From a virus: a stretch of 42,808 nt of DNA. Positions 15,291 to 39,020 of this stretch are shown piece after piece. Positions within the stretch are counted from its first letter, which is position 1; each line of letters begins with the position of its first letter. A program made the translations under genes and the position numbers. The stretch covers positions 1 through 42,808 of the IMG/VR virus record IMGVR_UViG_3300025164_001013; one strand, given 5' to 3'. Below the pieces are notes generated by a model. The model saw only the letters and a list, made by a program, of their open reading frames with translations. It was not told the origin of the DNA and ran no database searches.

Positions 15291-16547
15291 TCACCAGGTG
15301 TGCGCCCAGGCGCGCGTGCGCTGCTCTTCGGCGTCCTGCCGACGCTTGTCGGCGGCGTCCTTGTCGTCCTTGCGCGCGCCGGCCGATCGATCGCTCTTGT
15401 CGTTCAGCGCGCGGCGCGCGCTGTCGTTGCGGTCGGTGGTGCGCTTGGTGACCTTCTCGTCCGCCGTCTCCGCGTCGAAGCGCGCCGACACGTAGTCGTC
15501 GCTCTTGCCCGTGAGGTCGAGCTTGTCGTCGAGCTTCTTGAGCACCGCCTCGCGGACCTGGCGATCGGTGAGACCGTCGTACTTGTAGTCCTTGTCGAGA
15601 ACCTTCGCGGCCGCAGCGACGACCGCGGTGCGGGCCGCCACGAGGGAGTCGAGCCGCTTGGGATCCTCGAGCTCGGTGATCTTCTTCTTGCCGTCCGCCA
15701 CGTCCTTCTCGAGGCCGTCTGCGCGACCTGCCGCCTTGTCGCGCTCCGAGGTCAGCTGCGTGATCTGCTCGTCACGCACGAGCAGCGCCTTGCCGACGTG
15801 GGGTGCCAGCGCCTTGGGGATCTCGTAGTCGACGCCATCGATTCGGATCGTGATCAGGTCCATCGGCTTGCGCGCTCCGGGTGACGGTGGGTGCGATACA
15901 TAACTTACCGGCGGCTCAGGAGACCCGGACGCGTCGAAGCACTCTTCGAGGACCGCGCCCTCGGCGCCCAGGTCGAGATCTCCCTTGGCGTCGAGCTTCA
16001 GCCTCACGTCCTTGCCCTGCCGTCCCCAGTTCTCCGGCCCGAGCGCTACGTGGTTGTAGACGATGCGCCGTTGAATGGCGTCGTAGGGCTCACCGGTCGT
16101 GACGTGCGGACCGTACAGCGAGCCGTCGAAGCGACCCGACGCCACCTCGATCGCGCAGTCGTAGCCGCACGACAGCTCGACGCGATCGCGGCGCTCGACG
16201 CCGTCGATCATGTGCGCATCAACCACCGTCATCGAGGCAGCGACGTGCACGCCGTCGCCGTCGCGACGCACGTCATCGCCGACGTGGCCTACGCCGTAGC
16301 TGCGCACGTTGGTGGGCTTCACCATCTCGGGCGGGTGCAGGTCGGTGACGGGCGCGCCGCGCAGGCTCGCCAGCGAGTCCTCGCGGAACACCTCGTCGGG
16401 TGGCCGGAGCTCGCGCACGGTCGTACCGTCGGCGCGTCTGTAATTGAAGACGCCTACGCGAGTCGGATGGCCGTCGACGCGCAGGAAGCCCTGCGAGGTG
16501 CGCCGGCCCTTCGTCGGCAGACGCGAGAAGTCGTAGCGCGCGGGCAC
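15291..16547 (-). CDS. Scaffold / prohead protease-like protein (DUF2213-like) with charged coiled-coil C-terminus
   Basis: 418 aa. N-terminal pattern GFLRV....TR.GV..Y is typical of DUF2213. Lys/Asp-rich helical tail typical of scaffolds. Confidence 0.6.
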   Translation of the reverse strand: MPARYDFSRLPTKGRRTSQGFLRVDGHPTRVGVFNYRRADGTTVRELRPPDEVFREDSLASLRGAPVTDLHPPEMVKPTNVRSYGVGHVGDDVRRDGDGVHVAASMTVVDAHMIDGVERRDRVELSCGYDCAIEVASGRFDGSLYGPHVTTGEPYDAIQRRIVYNHVALGPENWGRQGKDVRLKLDAKGDLDLGAEGAVLEECFDASGSPEPPVSYVSHPPSPGARKPMDLITIRIDGVDYEIPKALAPHVGKALLVRDEQITQLTSERDKAAGRADGLEKDVADGKKKITELEDPKRLDSLVAARTAVVAAAAKVLDKDYKYDGLTDRQVREAVLKKLDDKLDLTGKSDDYVSARFDAETADEKVTKRTTDRNDSARRALNDKSDRSAGARKDDKDAADKRRQDAEEQRTRAWAHTW

Positions 16548-16581: not shown

Positions 16582-16815
16582 CTACTGCCAGCCGCCTGCG
16601 TACTTCGGCGCCTCGATGCCGCGGGCTCGGAAGTGCTGCTCGCGCAGCCCGAGCAGCCGCTTCCACATCGCAGACTGGTCGCGCTGCAGGGCACCGAGCG
16701 AATACCAGACGTTCTCGGGGAGCTCGCCCGTCTCGTCGAGGTAGGCGAGCGCAATCGCCTCCGCGCCTGCGGGGTCGTCTTTCTGGACGTTGTCGTACAG
16801 CTCCACTGCCCTCAT
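16582..16815 (-). CDS. Small protein coupled to the Mu F-like gene (candidate immunity/partner protein)
   Basis: ATG at 16815 in ATGA overlap with the stop of 16812..18509. 77 aa, acidic N-terminal half. High GC3. Confidence 0.45.
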   Translation of the reverse strand: MRAVELYDNVQKDDPAGAEAIALAYLDETGELPENVWYSLGALQRDQSAMWKRLLGLREQHFRARGIEAPKYAGGWQ

Positions 16816-18509
16816 TTTATCGTCCAGCCAATGCGCTCGAGCTCGGTCGCCAGGACCGTACGCTCGTAGGCTTTCAAGCCTGGCACGACGTCGGCAAAAA
16901 GACGAGCCGCCGACGCGGGGCGGGGCACCGAGTCCGTGCGGCGTTTGTAGGCGATAGCCGTCTCTTCGAGCACGCGCAGCACCTTGGCCTCCGACCATCC
17001 GGTCAGCACCTGCAAGCGCGAGCAGACCACGGCGATCATGTCGTCATAGGACCGCAGAAGGTTGCTCACCGGCGCCCACTGGCCTGTCTTCTTCGACACT
17101 TCTGGCAGTCCAAGCACGTCGCTTCCCTGGGGGCGGCCCTTGATGCCGAGCAGCTTCCGGGTAGTACGGCGGGAGAGGACCTCCGTCACCACCTCCTCCA
17201 CCAGCAGGCCGGACAGCGCGTAGAAGATCTCCGGCCCGTGGCCATGAATGGTCTCGTGAAAGAGGGTGTTTATGGACTTTCGGTGTAGGTCCGTGAGCTG
17301 GGCGCCGCTTCCCTTGGCGAGCTCTGCCGTGGCCTCCGACAACTGCTGCGCGACTACGGGGTCGATGGTCATCTCTCCGGTGTCGGTCTTCCACGATGCC
17401 CGGATGCCAGGACCAGGACTCGCAACCGTCACCACGTCATCGCTCGGAAGTGCTGGCTTTTGGACAGCGCGCAGGCTGCGTTGCACGAAAGACCGCGCCG
17501 CCGCCCGAGCGGCCTTGCCACCGTCCTTTGCCTGCCAGCCCTTGGCGATTGACGCCCGGGCGCCGCGCGCACGCGACGTCGTCTGCTGCGGCGTAGCGGC
17601 CGGAGCGGCGGCCGGTGCAGCCGCCGGCGGCTGCACGCCCATCGCCACGAGCAGCTTGTCGACCACGGGGATCGCCGAGCACCTGCAGCGCACGTCGCCG
17701 CCAGGGTGGTTGTGGCCGCCGGCCGCGTTGGTGACCGGCGCCGAGTCCCAGCGGCAGCGCTGGCCATCGAGCACGCGGTGATGCGGGCGCACCCGCTCGT
17801 CCTGCGAGGTGCTCCAGTCGTACTCCGCGATTCCGAGGCGCGTTTGCCGCACGCGCGTGAGCTCGCCGTTCAGCTTGCCGACCTGGTCGACGGCGATCAG
17901 GTTCGCGCGCGAGCGTGCGAGACCGAGCTCGCGTTGCAGGTCCCTCGAGATGTCCTCGACGCGTCGACCCTCGCGCACGCCGCGCAACGCAGCGGCCTCG
18001 ATCCGTGCGAGCGCCTCAGTGCCGAGCGATCCAATCAGCTTCACGTTCTGCTTGGCGAACGCTTCGAGCTGCGCCTGCTGGTCCTCGGCGACGGGCAGCG
18101 GGTTGAAGCCGGTCTGTAGCTTGAGCGTGGCGCCGAGCTCGGCCTTGTTGCGTGCCGCGACATCGACGGCGATCGTGCGCACGGCCGTGTCGATCCGCTG
18201 CTCGTTGACACGGGCCTCGTAGTCGGCGACCGCACGCGCCATCGCGTGCTCGACGTCGTCGGCAGGCGCGTCACGGCGCTCGAGCTCGCGTGCGTGCGCG
18301 AGGATCGCCGGCATACGCGGCAGCAGGTGCTCGCGCACCGCGGCCCCGAGCTCCGCCACCATGCCGCGCAGCAAGATCGAGTAGCGCAGCGCCGCGGCGT
18401 TGGGGAACGCTGGCGGACGCACGCGAGTACTCGGCCGGCGTGCGAGGCCGCGCTCGCGTGCAAGCTCGCGCCGCATCCGCAGCTCGAGCGCCTTCTCGGG
18501 CCGCAGCAC
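16812..18509 (-). CDS. Head morphogenesis protein (SPP1 gp7 / Mu F family) with C-terminal HExxH domain
   Basis: 565 aa. The Mu F core has the conserved ...DERVRPHHRVLDG...RCRC motif (residues about 100-285). An Ala/Pro linker follows, then a 220-aa domain carrying HETIH (17244..17258). Confidence 0.8.
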   Translation of the reverse strand: MLRPEKALELRMRRELARERGLARRPSTRVRPPAFPNAAALRYSILLRGMVAELGAAVREHLLPRMPAILAHARELERRDAPADDVEHAMARAVADYEARVNEQRIDTAVRTIAVDVAARNKAELGATLKLQTGFNPLPVAEDQQAQLEAFAKQNVKLIGSLGTEALARIEAAALRGVREGRRVEDISRDLQRELGLARSRANLIAVDQVGKLNGELTRVRQTRLGIAEYDWSTSQDERVRPHHRVLDGQRCRWDSAPVTNAAGGHNHPGGDVRCRCSAIPVVDKLLVAMGVQPPAAAPAAAPAATPQQTTSRARGARASIAKGWQAKDGGKAARAAARSFVQRSLRAVQKPALPSDDVVTVASPGPGIRASWKTDTGEMTIDPVVAQQLSEATAELAKGSGAQLTDLHRKSINTLFHETIHGHGPEIFYALSGLLVEEVVTEVLSRRTTRKLLGIKGRPQGSDVLGLPEVSKKTGQWAPVSNLLRSYDDMIAVVCSRLQVLTGWSEAKVLRVLEETAIAYKRRTDSVPRPASAARLFADVVPGLKAYERTVLATELERIGWTIK

Positions 18510-18511
18510 CG

Positions 18512-19951
18512 CTACTCCTCTGGCTCGAGATCAGGCTCGGGCTTCGGTGCGTTCGGATCGATCGGCTCGGGTGGGTTCTCGAGGCGGTCTACGGCGTTCT
18601 CGACGCCCAACTTGAGCATGGTCTCGCGCGCCTCGACGTCGATGCGGGTCTCGGCAGACCAGCCCCCTGGACCGAAGCGCGAGAGCGCTACCTCTTCGGG
18701 AAACAGCACCTGCGCGTGGACATAGGCCACATCGGATTCTGCCTTCAGGTTCTCGATCTCGGCCTGCTCCTTCGCGGTCGGCGTCCAGAGGGGCTTGAAA
18801 CAAATGTCCCACGACTCCGGCTCGCCGCCCTGCTCGTGCCACAGCATCGCGAAGAGCTTGCGGAGCTGCGGCTTGACCTGGGCCTCGCGCTCGGCTGCGC
18901 ACTGGTCGCGAAACCATCGCAGGTCCGACTCGCCGGTGGCGTTCAGGCCCGACGGTGATTGCCCGAACGCGATGGTGGCCGGCATGCGGGCCGCGGCTGC
19001 GAAGCGCAGCACGAACATCTGCATCACCTCCGGCACGCCGGTCAACGGAGTCGGCTTGCGCTCGAACTCCTCGCCGTCCGCGTCGAGCAGCACCGCCCGC
19101 ACGGTCGAGCGGGCGAGGTCCATCATTTCCATGCGGGCGTGGATGACGTCGCCGCCGCCCGCTGCCATCTGGTCGGCGAAGCCCCGCATCTTGAACACCG
19201 CCTGCGCGACGTCGGCCATCAGGTGAGCGACCGAGCCCCACGTGGTCTCGAAGTCTTGCAGCACCTCGTGCACGCGCTGCAGCACCGACTGGTCCCAGCC
19301 CATCAGCGTGCGACGCTTGGTGGGAGTCGTGCGAGCTCCGCGGAAGATCAACATTCGCGATTCGTGAATCGCGAATCCGCCGGCGGCCGAGGAGGTGACG
19401 GGCCCGGACGAGGGCACGCGCGTGATGCGGTAGAGCTGCGGTCGGCCGTACTTCGGCGCGCGCGGGTCCTCGTAGTAGCTCAGGACCTGCATGTCGCGCC
19501 GATCGAAGGCGGTCAGGAACGTGACCTTCTTGACCTTCGCGGGATCGAGCGGATCGATCTCCCCGAGCCCGTCCTCGACACCCACATACACGCCCCCACC
19601 ACCGAAGAGCCTTCCCCAAGTGAGGCCTTCGACGAAAGCCTCGTGTCCGCCGAGCTCGCACCAGCGAGCCATTAGGGCGTTTGCCTGCTGCGAGTCGTCG
19701 CAGGTGAGCTCGAAGCCCGAGCGCATCATTTCGTCGACGGGCAGCTCACAGACGCGCGCCGCGAGGTCGTTGCCGTCGTAGAGGTTCTCGAGCTCGGAGT
19801 CGCTCAGCGGGATCGACAGCGCGAACGCCTGGCCGCGGCGCTTGTCCCGCAGCACGTTACCGAGACCGGTGATGGTGTTGATCCAGCCGTCGTGGCGGAT
19901 CTGCCGCCACACGTGCTCGACAGTGGATCGACTCAGTACGCCTCGCTGCAT
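18512..19951 (-). CDS. Portal protein (DUF1073-like)
   Basis: ATG at 19951, 4 nt after the terL stop. 479 aa. Position between terL and Mu F. The upstream 82 Arg/Pro/Ser-rich codons of the tracked ORF are rejected. Confidence 0.8.
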   Translation of the reverse strand: MQRGVLSRSTVEHVWRQIRHDGWINTITGLGNVLRDKRRGQAFALSIPLSDSELENLYDGNDLAARVCELPVDEMMRSGFELTCDDSQQANALMARWCELGGHEAFVEGLTWGRLFGGGGVYVGVEDGLGEIDPLDPAKVKKVTFLTAFDRRDMQVLSYYEDPRAPKYGRPQLYRITRVPSSGPVTSSAAGGFAIHESRMLIFRGARTTPTKRRTLMGWDQSVLQRVHEVLQDFETTWGSVAHLMADVAQAVFKMRGFADQMAAGGGDVIHARMEMMDLARSTVRAVLLDADGEEFERKPTPLTGVPEVMQMFVLRFAAAARMPATIAFGQSPSGLNATGESDLRWFRDQCAAEREAQVKPQLRKLFAMLWHEQGGEPESWDICFKPLWTPTAKEQAEIENLKAESDVAYVHAQVLFPEEVALSRFGPGGWSAETRIDVEARETMLKLGVENAVDRLENPPEPIDPNAPKPEPDLEPEE

Positions 19952-34791: not shown

Positions 34792-35435
34792 TGCCGGCAC
34801 CAGTAGACCTGACCGGTCGGAGATTTGGAAAGCTGGTGGTGCTCAAGCTCGGGGCTAGGCGTAACGAGGCACGCGTTTGGATCTGCCTGTGCGACTGCAA
34901 CACGACCACCTCCGTGATTGGCCGCAACCTGGGGAACGGGCACACGCGCTCCTGCGGTTGCGCTCGCGTGCATCACGGAGAGTATGCGGGCGACTCGCTT
35001 CCATCGCCCGAGCTCGCGGCATGGAGAGCAATGATCGCGCGTTGCTCGAATCCGAAGAACCGCGTCTGGCACAACTACGGCGGGCGTGGCATTCGCGTTT
35101 GCGACCGATGGTCAGGATCGTTCAAAAACTTTCTGTCAGACATGGGGCGTCGCCCGTCTGACCGGCACTCGATCGATCGCGTCAACAACGACGGCAACTA
35201 CGAGCCCAGCAACTGCCGGTGGGCGCTCGCCGTTGAGCAGTCGAACAATCGCCGAGGCATCAAGCGCATCGTCGTTGGCGACGTAGCTCTGTCAGCGCCC
35301 GAGTGGTCACGAATCACCGGCATCCACAAGGACACGATCCACGGGCGCATCGAGCGCGGCTGGGATCCGGAGCTCGCGGTCAGCGCTGCACCTGATCGCT
35401 CAATGAAAGGGAGGCGATATGCTTTCGCTAAGTGA
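34791..35435 (+). CDS. HNH/AP2-like phage endonuclease-family protein
   Basis: Pattern L.GRRFGKL.V....W.C.CDC....V....L..G.T.SCGC followed by YGGRGI.VC.RW..F..F..DMG.RP...SIDR..N.G.YEP.NCRWA...Q.NN. Visibly less GC-rich than its neighbours. Confidence 0.6.
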   Translation: MPAPVDLTGRRFGKLVVLKLGARRNEARVWICLCDCNTTTSVIGRNLGNGHTRSCGCARVHHGEYAGDSLPSPELAAWRAMIARCSNPKNRVWHNYGGRGIRVCDRWSGSFKNFLSDMGRRPSDRHSIDRVNNDGNYEPSNCRWALAVEQSNNRRGIKRIVVGDVALSAPEWSRITGIHKDTIHGRIERGWDPELAVSAAPDRSMKGRRYAFAK

Positions 35436-36105
35436 CCACCTTAAGCCGTGGTCGGAACTCAACATTGCTTGCATCGACTTCGAGACCACTGGACCAGACC
35501 CGAAGACCTGCGAGCCCGTCGAGCTCGCGGTCGTGCGCTTCGAGGGCGGCGAGGTCGTCTCCCGCTACTCGACGCTGATCGAGCCCGATGCTGCGATCCC
35601 GCCCGAGGCGACGGCCATCCACGGCATCACCGACGAGATGGTGCGCGAGAGAGGCACGGCGGCGAGCATGGCGTGGGCGGACGCGCAGCATCTACTGCGT
35701 GGCGCCATCCCGTGCGCCTACCACGCGCCGTTCGACCGCACGATTCTGCACCGCATAATGGTCGACGCGCTCGACGGCCAGGCCGTGGCGCGGTGGCTCG
35801 AGCTCGAAACCGCGTGGCCGTGGCTCGACCCGCTCGTATGGGTGCGGCAGCTCGATCGCTTCGTCGCCGGCAAGGGCCGGCACACGCTCAGCGCTGCGTG
35901 CGCGCGGCGCGGCATCGTGCTCGAGGGTGCCCACCGTGCCGCGGCCGATGCCGAGGCGGCGGGGCGCCTGCTCTTCCATCCGAGCCTTCGCGCGCTCGGC
36001 GGCAGCTCGACCATCAGCGAGGTGCTGCGCCGGCAGTCCGCGACGGCCGCCGACCAGCAAGCCGACTTCGAGCGGTGGCGTGCCAGCCAGCCGGTGCAGC
36101 CGTGA
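35419..36105 (+). CDS. DnaQ-like DEDDh 3'-5' exonuclease
   Basis: AAAGGGAGG Shine-Dalgarno sequence. ExoI ACIDFETTG, ExoII AYHAPFD, ExoIII HRAAADAEA. Confidence 0.8.
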   Translation: MLSLSDHLKPWSELNIACIDFETTGPDPKTCEPVELAVVRFEGGEVVSRYSTLIEPDAAIPPEATAIHGITDEMVRERGTAASMAWADAQHLLRGAIPCAYHAPFDRTILHRIMVDALDGQAVARWLELETAWPWLDPLVWVRQLDRFVAGKGRHTLSAACARRGIVLEGAHRAAADAEAAGRLLFHPSLRALGGSSTISEVLRRQSATAADQQADFERWRASQPVQP

Positions 36106-36968: not shown

Positions 36969-37345
36969 TCGGTGACGGGCTGCACCGGGTGCACGCAGCG
37001 CCTGCCGCGGGCAAGGGCGGCAACAGCGTCGACATTGGCGCGGTGAGATGGCGCGGCGAGTCCAGCGCAGGCGCGCCAAAGCGCGAGATGGCGCATCGAA
37101 TCGCCACGTGCTGGAACGTGCTCGAGGGTTGGCCGACCGCCGCGCTCGAAGCGGGCTGTCTGCGCGAGGTGGACGATGCCGCGCTCGCGTTGTTGTCCGC
37201 GCTCGAGGGCGAGACCCTGACACAGGAGGGCAACCTTGCGCGCGAGCGTCTGCGCGCAGCATTCGCCGCGCGTGACCCTCAGCAGGACCTGTCTGGCGGC
37301 AGGCCGGCCGACTGCGACGACTGCTACCCGCCGAAAGATGCCTGA
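36965..37345 (+). CDS. Hypothetical protein upstream of int
   Basis: GTG in GTGA overlap. 126 aa. Confidence 0.4.
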   Translation: MIGDGLHRVHAAPAAGKGGNSVDIGAVRWRGESSAGAPKREMAHRIATCWNVLEGWPTAALEAGCLREVDDAALALLSALEGETLTQEGNLARERLRAAFAARDPQQDLSGGRPADCDDCYPPKDA

Positions 37346-39020
37346 CCGTCCGCCCAGCTTGCGGCCACCGGCCGGCCCGCGCGACAAGCGCCCGATGGGC
37401 AGCGGGTCGATCGAGGAGCGCGACGGCCGCCACCGCGTGCGGGTAAGGGTCGCGGGCCGCAAGCGCACGCTCGGCACCTACGCGACCCACGCCGAGGCGG
37501 CAGCGGTGCTCGAAGCGGCGCTAGAGCAGCTCTCGGCCGACCGCACCGCAAGCCCCGGCGCCACCACGCTGCGCGATTGGATCGCGCGCTGGCTCGAACA
37601 GCGCCACCTCTCGGGTGTCGTGCGCTCGGTCTACGACGACGAGTCACGCTTGCGCGCGCACGTGCTCTCTGAGCCGTGGGCCGACGACGCGCTCGACCAG
37701 ATCGACCGCCGCACCGTGCGGGCATGGGCGATCTCGATGCTGTCGCGCGAGGGCCGACGCCACGCCGGCGACGGCAAGCTGGTCAGCACCGGCCGGCGGC
37801 TCTCGCGCCACACCGTCAGCCACGTGCTCGCGACCCTGCGGGTGTGCCTGCGCGACGCCGTCGAACTCGGGCTGCTCGACGAGAACCCAGCCGCCGGCGT
37901 GCGGGTGCCGGCCGCGCAGTACACGCACGAGCCCTGGACGTACCTCACACAGGGCGAGATCGACGCGCTGCTGTCGTGCGAGCTCGTGCCCGCGCCGTAT
38001 CGGCTTCTCTACCGGGTCGCCATCTACACCGGCCTGCGCAAGGGCGAGCTCTGGGGCCTGCGCTGGGGCGACTGCTACCTCGACCACGCGACCCCGCACC
38101 TGATGGTGCGCCGCTCAAGGTCCGCAGCCCCGAAGAACGGCAAGATCCGAATGGTGCCGTTGCTCGGGCAGGCACGGGAGGCGCTCGAGCAGATGAACTC
38201 CATTTGTTCAGATTTGGCCCCTGATCGTTCAGCCGAAGGGGGTGATCGTTCAGCCGACCTCGTCTTCCCGGCACCCGACGGCTCGATGCGCGCGCGCTGG
38301 AACGACGCTCGGTGGAAGCAGCGCCGCAAGCCCTACACCACGGCCGACGGCGAGCGCCGCCACATCACCGAGCCCGGCTACCGCGAGCTCGCCGGCATCA
38401 AGCGCCACGTGCGCTTCCACGACCTGCGGCACACGTGCGCGAGCCATCTGCTGATGGGCACCTGGGGCCGAGCGTGGCGGCTCGAGGAGGTGCGGGATTT
38501 GCTCGGCCACAGCGACACCGCGGTCACGCAACGCTACGCCCACCTGGCGCCCGATCGCCTGCACGCCGCGGCCGCGGCGACGGTGCTCGAGCGGCCCCAG
38601 ACTGGCCCCACGGCACACGCTGCGAGCACCGCGGGCAGCGTGATCGGCGCCGACAACGCGCTGCAATCGCTGGACATTGCGCGGGGAGCCATCTCCGAGA
38701 TTCGAACTCGGGACCGACGGTTTACGAAACCGGTCGGGAGTGACGGACGTCATGGTGCTTTCGGCCCGTTGGGGCTGGCGTGGGGCCACGAAGCGCATGA
38801 GCTGGCGATCGACATTCTGCGGCGCGCCGCGCGCGGTGATGCCGTGCCTATCGAGGCAGCACACGGACTCGCTCAAGCCGTAGCCTCACACAAGGCGTTC
38901 AGGCTTGCCGCTGCCGTCCTGGCAGAGCTCGGCCAGCCCACGGCCCAGTCGCTGGCGGTCACACTCGCCGTGCTCGTTACGGAGGCGCTCGAGCGCACGC
39001 CGGAGGCCGGTCATGGCTGA
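37338..39020 (+). CDS. int: Tyrosine integrase with a long C-terminal extension that crosses the attP core
   Basis: Motifs GLRKGELWGLRWGD, HDLRHTCASHLL, LGHSDTAVTQRYAHL. No stop codon until 39020, about 150 codons after the catalytic Tyr. Alternative start at 37395. Confidence 0.85.
   Translation: MPDRPPSLRPPAGPRDKRPMGSGSIEERDGRHRVRVRVAGRKRTLGTYATHAEAAAVLEAALEQLSADRTASPGATTLRDWIARWLEQRHLSGVVRSVYDDESRLRAHVLSEPWADDALDQIDRRTVRAWAISMLSREGRRHAGDGKLVSTGRRLSRHTVSHVLATLRVCLRDAVELGLLDENPAAGVRVPAAQYTHEPWTYLTQGEIDALLSCELVPAPYRLLYRVAIYTGLRKGELWGLRWGDCYLDHATPHLMVRRSRSAAPKNGKIRMVPLLGQAREALEQMNSICSDLAPDRSAEGGDRSADLVFPAPDGSMRARWNDARWKQRRKPYTTADGERRHITEPGYRELAGIKRHVRFHDLRHTCASHLLMGTWGRAWRLEEVRDLLGHSDTAVTQRYAHLAPDRLHAAAAATVLERPQTGPTAHAASTAGSVIGADNALQSLDIARGAISEIRTRDRRFTKPVGSDGRHGAFGPLGLAWGHEAHELAIDILRRAARGDAVPIEAAHGLAQAVASHKAFRLAAAVLAELGQPTAQSLAVTLAVLVTEALERTPEAGHG
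38687..38733 (-). other. attP core: 3' 47 nt of a tRNA-Thr(CGU)-like gene (anticodon arm, variable loop, T arm, 3' acceptor strand)
   Basis: Minus strand reads CCGGT-TTCGTAA-ACCGT-CGGTC-CCGAG-TTCGAAT-CTCGG-AGATGGC-T. No D arm or complementary 5' acceptor strand lies upstream, so this is a fragment and not a gene. Confidence 0.6.

Follow-up and report, generated by a model that had tools for sequence, protein, structure and literature searches.

What is a zinc-peptidase-like domain doing at the end of a phage head protein, and what is the role of the very small gene that overlaps its stop codon? This question is raised by the IMG/VR virus record IMGVR_UViG_3300025164_001013, of which positions 1 to 42,808 were analyzed (hereafter the window), and in which a Mu F minor head protein of 565 amino acids (aa) is extended at its C-terminus by a domain with an HExxH motif and is followed by an open reading frame (ORF) of 77 aa. 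The initial annotation, made from the DNA alone, had proposed a virion-delivered metallopeptidase effector with a cognate inhibitor. The architectural side of this proposal (the domain, its motif, the adjacency of the partner and the exchange of carriers) gained support in our analysis: the architecture, the conservation of the catalytic motif, the zincin type of the predicted fold, the fusion to Mu F and portal modules, the adjacency of the partner gene, the shuffling of the cassette and the temperate setting were established directly, whereas delivery, activity and inhibition stay at the level of prediction. The reading that we favor, with a confidence slightly above even, is that the Mu F protein carries a gluzincin-like peptidase effector as virion cargo, which the 77-aa protein silences as an inhibitor.

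The Mu F fusion protein and its C-terminal domain

The fusion gene occupies positions 16812..18509 on the minus strand, as read from the ORF and its translation. It starts with a GTG codon located 3 nucleotides past the stop codon of the portal gene, and GAGGAG is found 6-11 nucleotides upstream of this GTG. The assignment of the 565-aa product to the Mu F/SPP1 gp7 proteins was confirmed by its matches to Phage_Mu_F (PF04233; residues 169-280, 17670..18005, minus strand; E 2.2e-18, 67.4 bits at a cut-off of 29.6), to TIGR01641 (SPP1 gp7; residues 173-283; E 1.8e-19, 70.1 bits at a cut-off of 39.65) and to PHROG 324 'head morphogenesis' (residues 18-285). Proteins of this kind are portal-associated minor head proteins, and enzymatic domains joined to them are assumed to enter the cell along with the DNA (Zhang et al., 2012, PMC3482391; Iyer et al., 2017, PMC5512222; Jamet et al., 2017, PMC5576092). 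The Mu F core would presumably target the fusion protein to the capsid and the portal.

The rest of the layout was also confirmed from the sequence, namely an Ala/Pro-rich linker (about residues 287-320, 17550..17651, minus strand) and, behind it, an extra domain that contains LFHETIHGH as well as LLVEEVVTE, the latter listed as residues 434-442. This C-terminal zincin-like domain of an undescribed family (residues 321-565, 16815..17549, minus strand) is documented by a profile family, an AlphaFold2 (AF2) model and Foldseek comparison. According to the alignments and the model, HETIH (H418, E419 and H422; 17244..17258, minus strand) closes the active-site helix and is predicted to bind zinc and to act in catalysis, and it is followed by the Glu helix E438-E439-V-V-T-E443-V-L-S-R447 (17169..17198, minus strand). 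The guanine-plus-cytosine (GC) content at third codon positions is 0.79 in the C-terminal domain (16812-17549) and 0.89 in the Mu F part (17610-18509), which is weakly suggestive of a more recent acquisition of the domain.

Homologues of the domain were collected by an exhaustive HMMER scan of 1.84 billion cluster representatives, which yielded 58 representative clusters at E ≤ 1e-3 and 13 at E ≤ 1e-10; the entire unit of about 235 residues is common to the family members, as judged from the iterated profile. One HExxH may occur by chance in a protein of 565 aa. The motif of the fusion protein, however, is more than a chance occurrence, since 53 of the 56 full-length homologues retain it at the aligned position, and the conservation on which the original idea of a peptidase depended is thereby observed. 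In the 43-sequence domain alignment, with an overall identity of 22-33%, the residues R335, G378, H418, E419, H422, E438, E439, E443, R447 and Y488 are invariant or at least 90% conserved (E443 is invariant; E438, E439 and R447 are conserved to at least 90%). The acids E439 and E443 follow HExxH at a spacing of 16 and 20 residues and, in the AF2 model, are placed one helical turn apart on the helix after the HExxH helix. In thermolysin, E166 and D170 represent the gluzincin arrangement of a third zinc ligand and a His-orienting acid. The E-x-x-x-E spacing being comparable to the ExxxD of gluzincins, E439 and E443 are candidates for the same two roles, and the conserved Tyr could stabilize the transition state.

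These data bear on the suggestion that the domain is catalytically dead or represents a non-peptidase zincin-like fold, e.g., a metal-dependent binding module, the fusion then being purely structural and extending Mu F inside the head. Such a suggestion might be drawn from the three family representatives that have no HExxH (P0013, P0049 and P0053) and from the weakness of the structural similarity to real peptidases. It is nevertheless very improbable in our view, as H, E, H, E-x-x-x-E, R and Y are near-invariant across sequences that otherwise share only 25-35% identity, which points to selection acting on the catalytic site.

The AF2 model of the domain, obtained with the domain alignment as input, reached a predicted local distance difference test (pLDDT) value of 93.8 and a predicted template modelling (pTM) score of 0.92; protein residues 321-325, the first five of the query, have pLDDT below 50. 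The model consists, in domain numbering, of helix 12-25, strands 40-42, 51-53 and 60-62, helix 64-78, helix 87-102, which ends in HExxH, and helix 112-134, bearing the Glu residues and R447, while the C-terminal part is a four-helix subdomain with Y488 just before it. The order of these elements matches that of the zincin core described by Iyer et al. (2017, PMC5512222). In a Foldseek comparison with the PDB, the 29 best matches were all zinc peptidases of the families M4, M1, M9 or M49 (DPP III): ProA, LasB, aureolysin, thermolysin and vibriolysin of M4; LTA4 hydrolase, ERAP1, IRAP and the cold aminopeptidase of M1; the M9 collagenase; and DPP III. Sequence identity to these gluzincin structures is about 10-13%. 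A Foldseek search of BFVD gave nothing better than E 0.1, its weak matches including SprT-like, IrrE-like and polyvalent proteins. Thus, a metallopeptidase-like fold around HETIH, as anticipated in the initial annotation, is borne out at the level of modelling by the zincin order of elements and by the top PDB matches, all of them gluzincins and all of them weak. From the model we conclude that the C-terminal domain is probably a zincin of gluzincin type, belonging to a divergent family without a close solved or catalogued relative.

The claim that the domain is outside any named family was upheld by the sequence searches. The C-domain of the window protein had no Pfam match at E ≤ 10, and none of the 57 family members had one in this domain at E ≤ 0.01, with MPTase-PolyVal, Tox-MPTase and the other curated HExxH families included; no NCBIfam or PADLOC match to the domain was obtained, and a profile search against the PDB sequences returned chance matches only (a designed helical protein and protein A repeats). 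Among the PHROGs, only phrog_35295, whose function is not annotated, was matched, weakly and by 3 of 43 members. By tblastn, no counterpart of the C-domain was detected in 50,697 phage genomes at E ≤ 1, and two scans of GTDB representative genomes with the patterns tried revealed no relatives. The metagenome pattern scan (HE[TVA]IHGHG, VEEVVTE) returned only two copies of one contig, already present in the set, and word-indexed protein searches with the C-domain and with the 43-sequence alignment found only two chimeric fragments of the window itself. These two fragments, P0001 and P0002, were rejected as homologues: they are chimeric ORFs that begin with a translation of this same locus in another frame or from the other strand, and they seem to be artefacts of assembly or gene calling.

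The 77-aa partner and its homologues

The partner gene (16582..16815, minus strand) is translationally coupled to the fusion gene: the ATG of the ATGA at 16812..16815 overlaps the stop codon of the latter, exactly as had been noted at the outset and now confirmed from the sequence. Its composition is of the coding type for a genome with 68% GC (GC of 0.88 at the third and 0.42 at the second codon positions). The protein was modelled with AF2 as a four-helix bundle (pLDDT 91.3) with a conserved C-terminal tail that is disordered. Neither a Pfam, PHROG or PADLOC model nor an informative PDB match was found for it. The partner family comprises 16 clusters, three of which are the window's own protein or assembly fragments of the same, and is characterized by the motif W-T-P-E-N...IA-R-A-F-L-E-E-x-G-D-[LIV]-P...[LM]-R-x-x-H-F-x-[KR]-L-G-K-P-V-P-x-Y-x-G.

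A hidden Markov model (HMM) of the partner was built from its closest homologues (loci L004, L005, L006 and L008) and run on six-frame translations of all loci. According to this model, a partner adjoins the 3' end of the domain in 10 distinct loci, in either orientation (seven co-directional and three convergent), so the small ORF proved to be conserved beside the domain. It directly follows the HExxH gene in L004 (78 aa, with a 4-nucleotide overlap), L005 (74 aa; the head module there is a different one), L006 (82 aa, also with an overlap) and L008 (100 aa); further co-directional partners were detected in L022 and L032/33, and convergent ones, with a 4-nucleotide 3' overlap with the HExxH gene, in L009, L010-12 and L015/16. 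Five co-directional loci were checked in detail: in three of them the partner overlaps the stop codon, and in two it starts 11-15 nucleotides past it. The inverted partners (L009:903-1292, L010:973-1350 and L015:4501-4776) are located within otherwise one-directional head modules and have an N-terminal extension, being 91-129 aa long. In L008, an extra gene for a 159-aa protein without an assigned function (L008:5664-6143, minus strand) is inserted between the partner and DUF2213 genes.

All 19 complete loci have a small ORF adjoining the domain. In the nine of these not covered by the partner HMM (L002/13/14, L003, L024/25, L026, L027, L028/30, L031, L034 and L035), it is a divergent ORF of 54-84 aa, which overlaps or directly abuts the stop codon in seven cases, is located about 80 nucleotides downstream in L031 and is convergent in L002. 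These nine ORFs and the partner family have in common the N-terminal pattern D/ND-x-x-A-A ... hydrophobic ... L-Q-D/T-D/E, and in a search with the L024 ORF its positional equivalents from L031 and L035 were the best non-self matches among 5013 fragments (E about 3e-3). The ORFs were not accepted as proven homologues of the partner, because jackhmmer seeded with the window partner does not reach them and hhalign gave E values of 0.025 to 1e-4 with low probabilities; they are positional equivalents and possibly remote homologues, as far as these comparisons indicate.

Partner genes were also found as orphans, with no HExxH domain within 4.5 kb (loci L017, L020 and L018/19). One of them, P0069 (L017:4501-4794), is located directly after a tyrosine integrase gene and beside a BstA_C abortive-infection gene, and P0068 (L020:3925-4257) is found about 1 kb after a tyrosine integrase gene. 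P0073 is a member of a tandem pair (90 and 87 aa) in the bacterial chromosome GCA_033612695.1 (L018:4218-4764, L019:2051-2597), between a cupin gene and a gene for a T2SSE-type ATPase, behind which come response regulators with a PatA_N domain; the surroundings of this pair contain no phage genes. By analogy, the orphans resemble orphan immunity genes. The position of the convergent partners outside the late transcript, together with the orphans near integrases, would fit an immunity gene expressed independently of virion production. It is also conceivable, albeit doubtful, that the orphans beside the integrases and the BstA gene and the chromosomal tandem pair represent the inhibitor recruited as a defense against peptidases injected by incoming phages. 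If so, there would be a protease-versus-inhibitor arms race involving virion cargo, with a cassette of peptidase and inhibitor hopping between Mu F and portal carriers.

The same data have to be considered when asking whether the small protein is an inhibitor at all. The peptidase could be an ejected effector and its neighbor a co-effector, a substrate adaptor or a small regulatory or DNA-binding passenger of the cassette. This would agree with the all-helical bundle showing no similarity to known peptidase inhibitors, with the chromosomal homologues beside regulators and the T2SSE ATPase that have no HExxH gene within 4.5 kb, and with the orphan placed immediately after an integrase gene, a position typical of excisionase-like genes. 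However, tight abutment to the 3' end in both orientations and behind unrelated carriers is the classic pattern of a binding partner of the C-terminal domain, and the conserved disordered tail LGKPVPxYxG looks like a possible partner-docking peptide, so that we consider a non-inhibitor role distinctly unlikely. Inhibition of the peptidase by the 77-aa protein is accordingly kept as the preferred assumption below.

Carriers, genome setting and fate of the domain

Pfam Phage_Mu_F was detected upstream of the domain in 32 of the 57 family members, and Portal_Mu or Phage_portal_3 is found at the N-terminus of P0008 and P0041; an additional domain precedes Mu F in P0027 (InPase) and P0018 (AAA_18). 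Almost without exception, the domain is joined to a Mu F or portal module, and among the carriers of the family members no non-phage secretion carrier was found. Two proteins, P0047 and P0058, hold two copies of the HExxH domain in one polypeptide. A further arrangement is that of a 1513-aa Mu F protein ending in the same zincin domain (L003:933-5474, IMG/VR), the middle of which, by eye, consists of about nine repeats of a unit of about 95 residues, each ending in a 'FWxxY/H..K'-like sequence.

The similarity of the N-terminal parts is only weakly correlated with that of the C-domains (Spearman coefficient 0.22 over 741 pairs), and the proteins ranking second and third by C-domain similarity to the window, P0004 and P0005, score about 100 bits in this domain, while their N-terminal regions have no detectable similarity to that of the window (0-20 bits). 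Both observations indicate that the domain has been exchanged between carriers, which is the defining behavior of polymorphic-toxin C-termini; the occurrence of the C-domain together with the small ORF behind unrelated N-terminal carriers is likewise a hallmark of polymorphic toxins.

According to the gene annotation, the virion module fills the left half of the window on the minus strand in the order TerS, TerL, portal, Mu F, small ORF, DUF2213, cement protein, major capsid protein (PF09950) and E217-like neck and tail genes; the GC content of the window is about 68%. The portal gene (Phage_portal_3, 479 aa; 18512..19951, minus strand; Pfam E 1.2e-82) is directly upstream of the Mu F gene and outside the pair under study, and directly downstream of the pair is the gene for a DUF2213 / Pa193_gp24 head maturation protease or scaffold (15291..16547, minus strand; PF09979 E 5.8e-36, PHROG 530 E 1.5e-85). 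The 565-aa protein and the 479-aa portal were also called as genes on the ENA metagenome contig k141_128813 (ERZ27254818), a sequence of 42.9 kb of which the window makes up nearly all. A tyrosine integrase gene (37236..39020, plus strand; Pfam Phage_integrase E 1.8e-21) characterizes the element as temperate. Among the other genes, one for a Dam-type DNA methyltransferase (PF05869; 23014-23943, minus strand) is located two genes (189 and 188 aa) upstream of the small terminase gene, and one for an RNase_T-family exonuclease (35419-36105, plus strand) is found in the other arm of the window, near the integrase.

With its own DUF2213 gene, the head module of the window has a separate maturation protein. 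Short Mu F proteins are present in the cultured phages that come nearest to the window in the N-terminal 300 residues; in the one inspected, Rhizobium phage RHEph04, Mu F is 274 aa long, shows 33% identity and has no such domain. The domain is therefore dispensable for the morphogenetic role of Mu F, since RHEph04 manages without it and the maturation protein in the window is separate. For the same reasons, DUF2213 occupying that slot and related Mu F proteins being devoid of the domain, a function of the domain as the head maturation protease was rejected.

A less specific version of this idea is that the zincin domain is a processing peptidase acting in cis or inside the capsid, where it would sever the fusion within its linker or else trim other internal head proteins in the course of maturation or before ejection; the small protein would then be an assembly chaperone or timer, and no host target would be involved. 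The same role was proposed for the zincin domains of virion-packaged polyvalent proteins (Iyer et al., 2017, PMC5512222). The strict association of the domain with Mu F and portal modules, the flexible Ala/Pro linker between the Mu F core and the zincin domain and the two family members with a double domain (P0047, P0058) are compatible with processing as well. On the other hand, proteins of two domains hold nothing else to release, the head module has its DUF2213 maturation protein and related phages manage without the domain. Partners encoded on the opposite strand (L009, L010 and L015) and orphans adjacent to integrases (L017 and L020) are, moreover, hard to square with a chaperone of the late operon. 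Considering these facts, we regard processing as an unlikely function of the domain.

Returning to the peptidase as ejected cargo with a dedicated inhibitor, the following sequence of events can be envisaged. The Mu F core would bring a few copies of the fusion protein into the procapsid at the portal, and the Ala/Pro linker would keep the peptidase domain free as cargo. This cargo would leave the capsid together with the DNA and act in the newly infected cell on proteins of the host or of a competitor. In the producing or lysogenic cell, the 77-aa protein, synthesized by translational coupling, would bind the peptidase domain and hold it harmless, thus serving as immunity protein or inhibitor, and the peptidase domain and the small gene would move as one cassette between capsid-targeting carriers. 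Packaging, ejection, catalysis, the target of the peptidase, and its binding and inhibition by the partner are all steps that we infer.

Several points weigh against this scheme and have to be taken into account. The Foldseek matches of the domain are weak (E 0.025-0.5, TM score 0.36-0.44), and no sequence profile ties the C-domain to a curated peptidase family. The predicted fold of the partner matches no known inhibitor or immunity protein, and the assumed binding of the two proteins comes from gene linkage alone. In 9 of the 19 complete loci the small ORF is weakly similar to the partner family, as the above hhalign values demonstrate, and the existence of partner homologues in a non-phage chromosomal context means that the role of this family may be more general. 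Finally, toxicity of a protein injected in few copies is not a given.

Relation to known systems and biological meaning

A 'MuF phage-capsid-like system' has been listed as one of the routes of toxin delivery (Zhang et al., 2012, PMC3482391). MuF polymorphic toxins occur in temperate phages; among 191 of them, a metallopeptidase domain was reported in 20%, and a short ORF follows in 89% (Jamet et al., 2017, PMC5576092). The general statement of the initial annotation that Mu F proteins carry variable C-terminal toxin domains with adjacent immunity genes agrees with these data. The locus of the window resembles MuF polymorphic toxins in that the Mu F domain comes right after the portal gene and is followed by a variable C-terminal enzymatic domain and a short ORF, in the temperate nature of the element evidenced by the integrase gene, and in the presence of the same C-domain behind unrelated carriers. 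It differs in that its C-domain matches no Pfam toxin or peptidase model, in that the partner gene in the family is sometimes convergent instead of downstream, and in that toxicity is here a prediction. The identity of the window domain with the Ct_MAD of Jamet et al. (2017) is unlikely: the compared parts of the Ct_MAD HMM (positions 1-19 and 84-126 of 251) contain no HExxH and have a weakly conserved consensus where the window domain is most strongly conserved, and the C-terminus of Mu gp30 is a PBECR RNase (Iyer et al., 2017, PMC5512222). Nucleotide pyrophosphokinase domains of MuF toxins have reportedly been studied (PMC12226406), and no comparable study of a MuF peptidase domain was found.

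Zincin metallopeptidases (MPTases) are the commonest domain of virion-delivered polyvalent proteins (Iyer, Burroughs, Anand, de Souza and Aravind, 2017, PMC5512222). With these MPTases (Pfam MPTase-PolyVal) the window domain shares the HExxH helix followed by the Glu helix on a core of an N-terminal helix and a three-stranded sheet, the fusion to virion-targeting modules, including Mu F, and the predicted delivery with the DNA. In contrast to them, the window family has no member matching the Pfam model at E ≤ 0.01, consists mostly of plain two-domain proteins in place of giant multi-effector ones, and has a dedicated small partner gene, which has not been described as a feature of polyvalent-protein MPTases. 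The thermolysin-like gluzincins (MEROPS M4: ProA, LasB, aureolysin, thermolysin) and the M1 aminopeptidases provide the best, though weak, structural matches and have in common with the window domain HExxH and two acidic residues spaced by one helical turn on the helix that follows, whereas the window domain, with about 235 residues, is much smaller and lacks a propeptide or secretion signal. Polymorphic peptidase toxins, such as Tox-ALFMetallopeptidase with Imm-SuFu (Zhang et al., 2012, PMC3482391), are similar in having a C-terminal HExxH peptidase, an adjacent small immunity gene and orphan immunity copies; nevertheless, neither their toxin nor their immunity family is related in sequence to those of the window, and delivery would proceed here by the capsid and not by a secretion system.

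Taken together, the architecture of a Mu F-metallopeptidase fusion is already known and as such will be no surprise to a specialist, while the zincin family and the partner family have not been described; with them, the annotation gap grows by two unnamed families, the domain with 58 representative clusters and the partner with 16 clusters. Besides being clean and well modelled, the pair is accessible to experiment. Proteins injected with phage DNA constitute an under-explored layer of phage-host and phage-phage conflict, and in this locus a compact zincin domain, modelled with confidence and bearing a clear catalytic signature, comes together with a 77-aa partner in strict linkage and with natural orphans of this partner. 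It thereby makes tractable the questions of what an injected protease cuts and whether its inhibitor is used by cells or prophages for their own defense. A role in counter-defense, of which the orphan partner genes give a hint, would be the more interesting aspect of this system if true.

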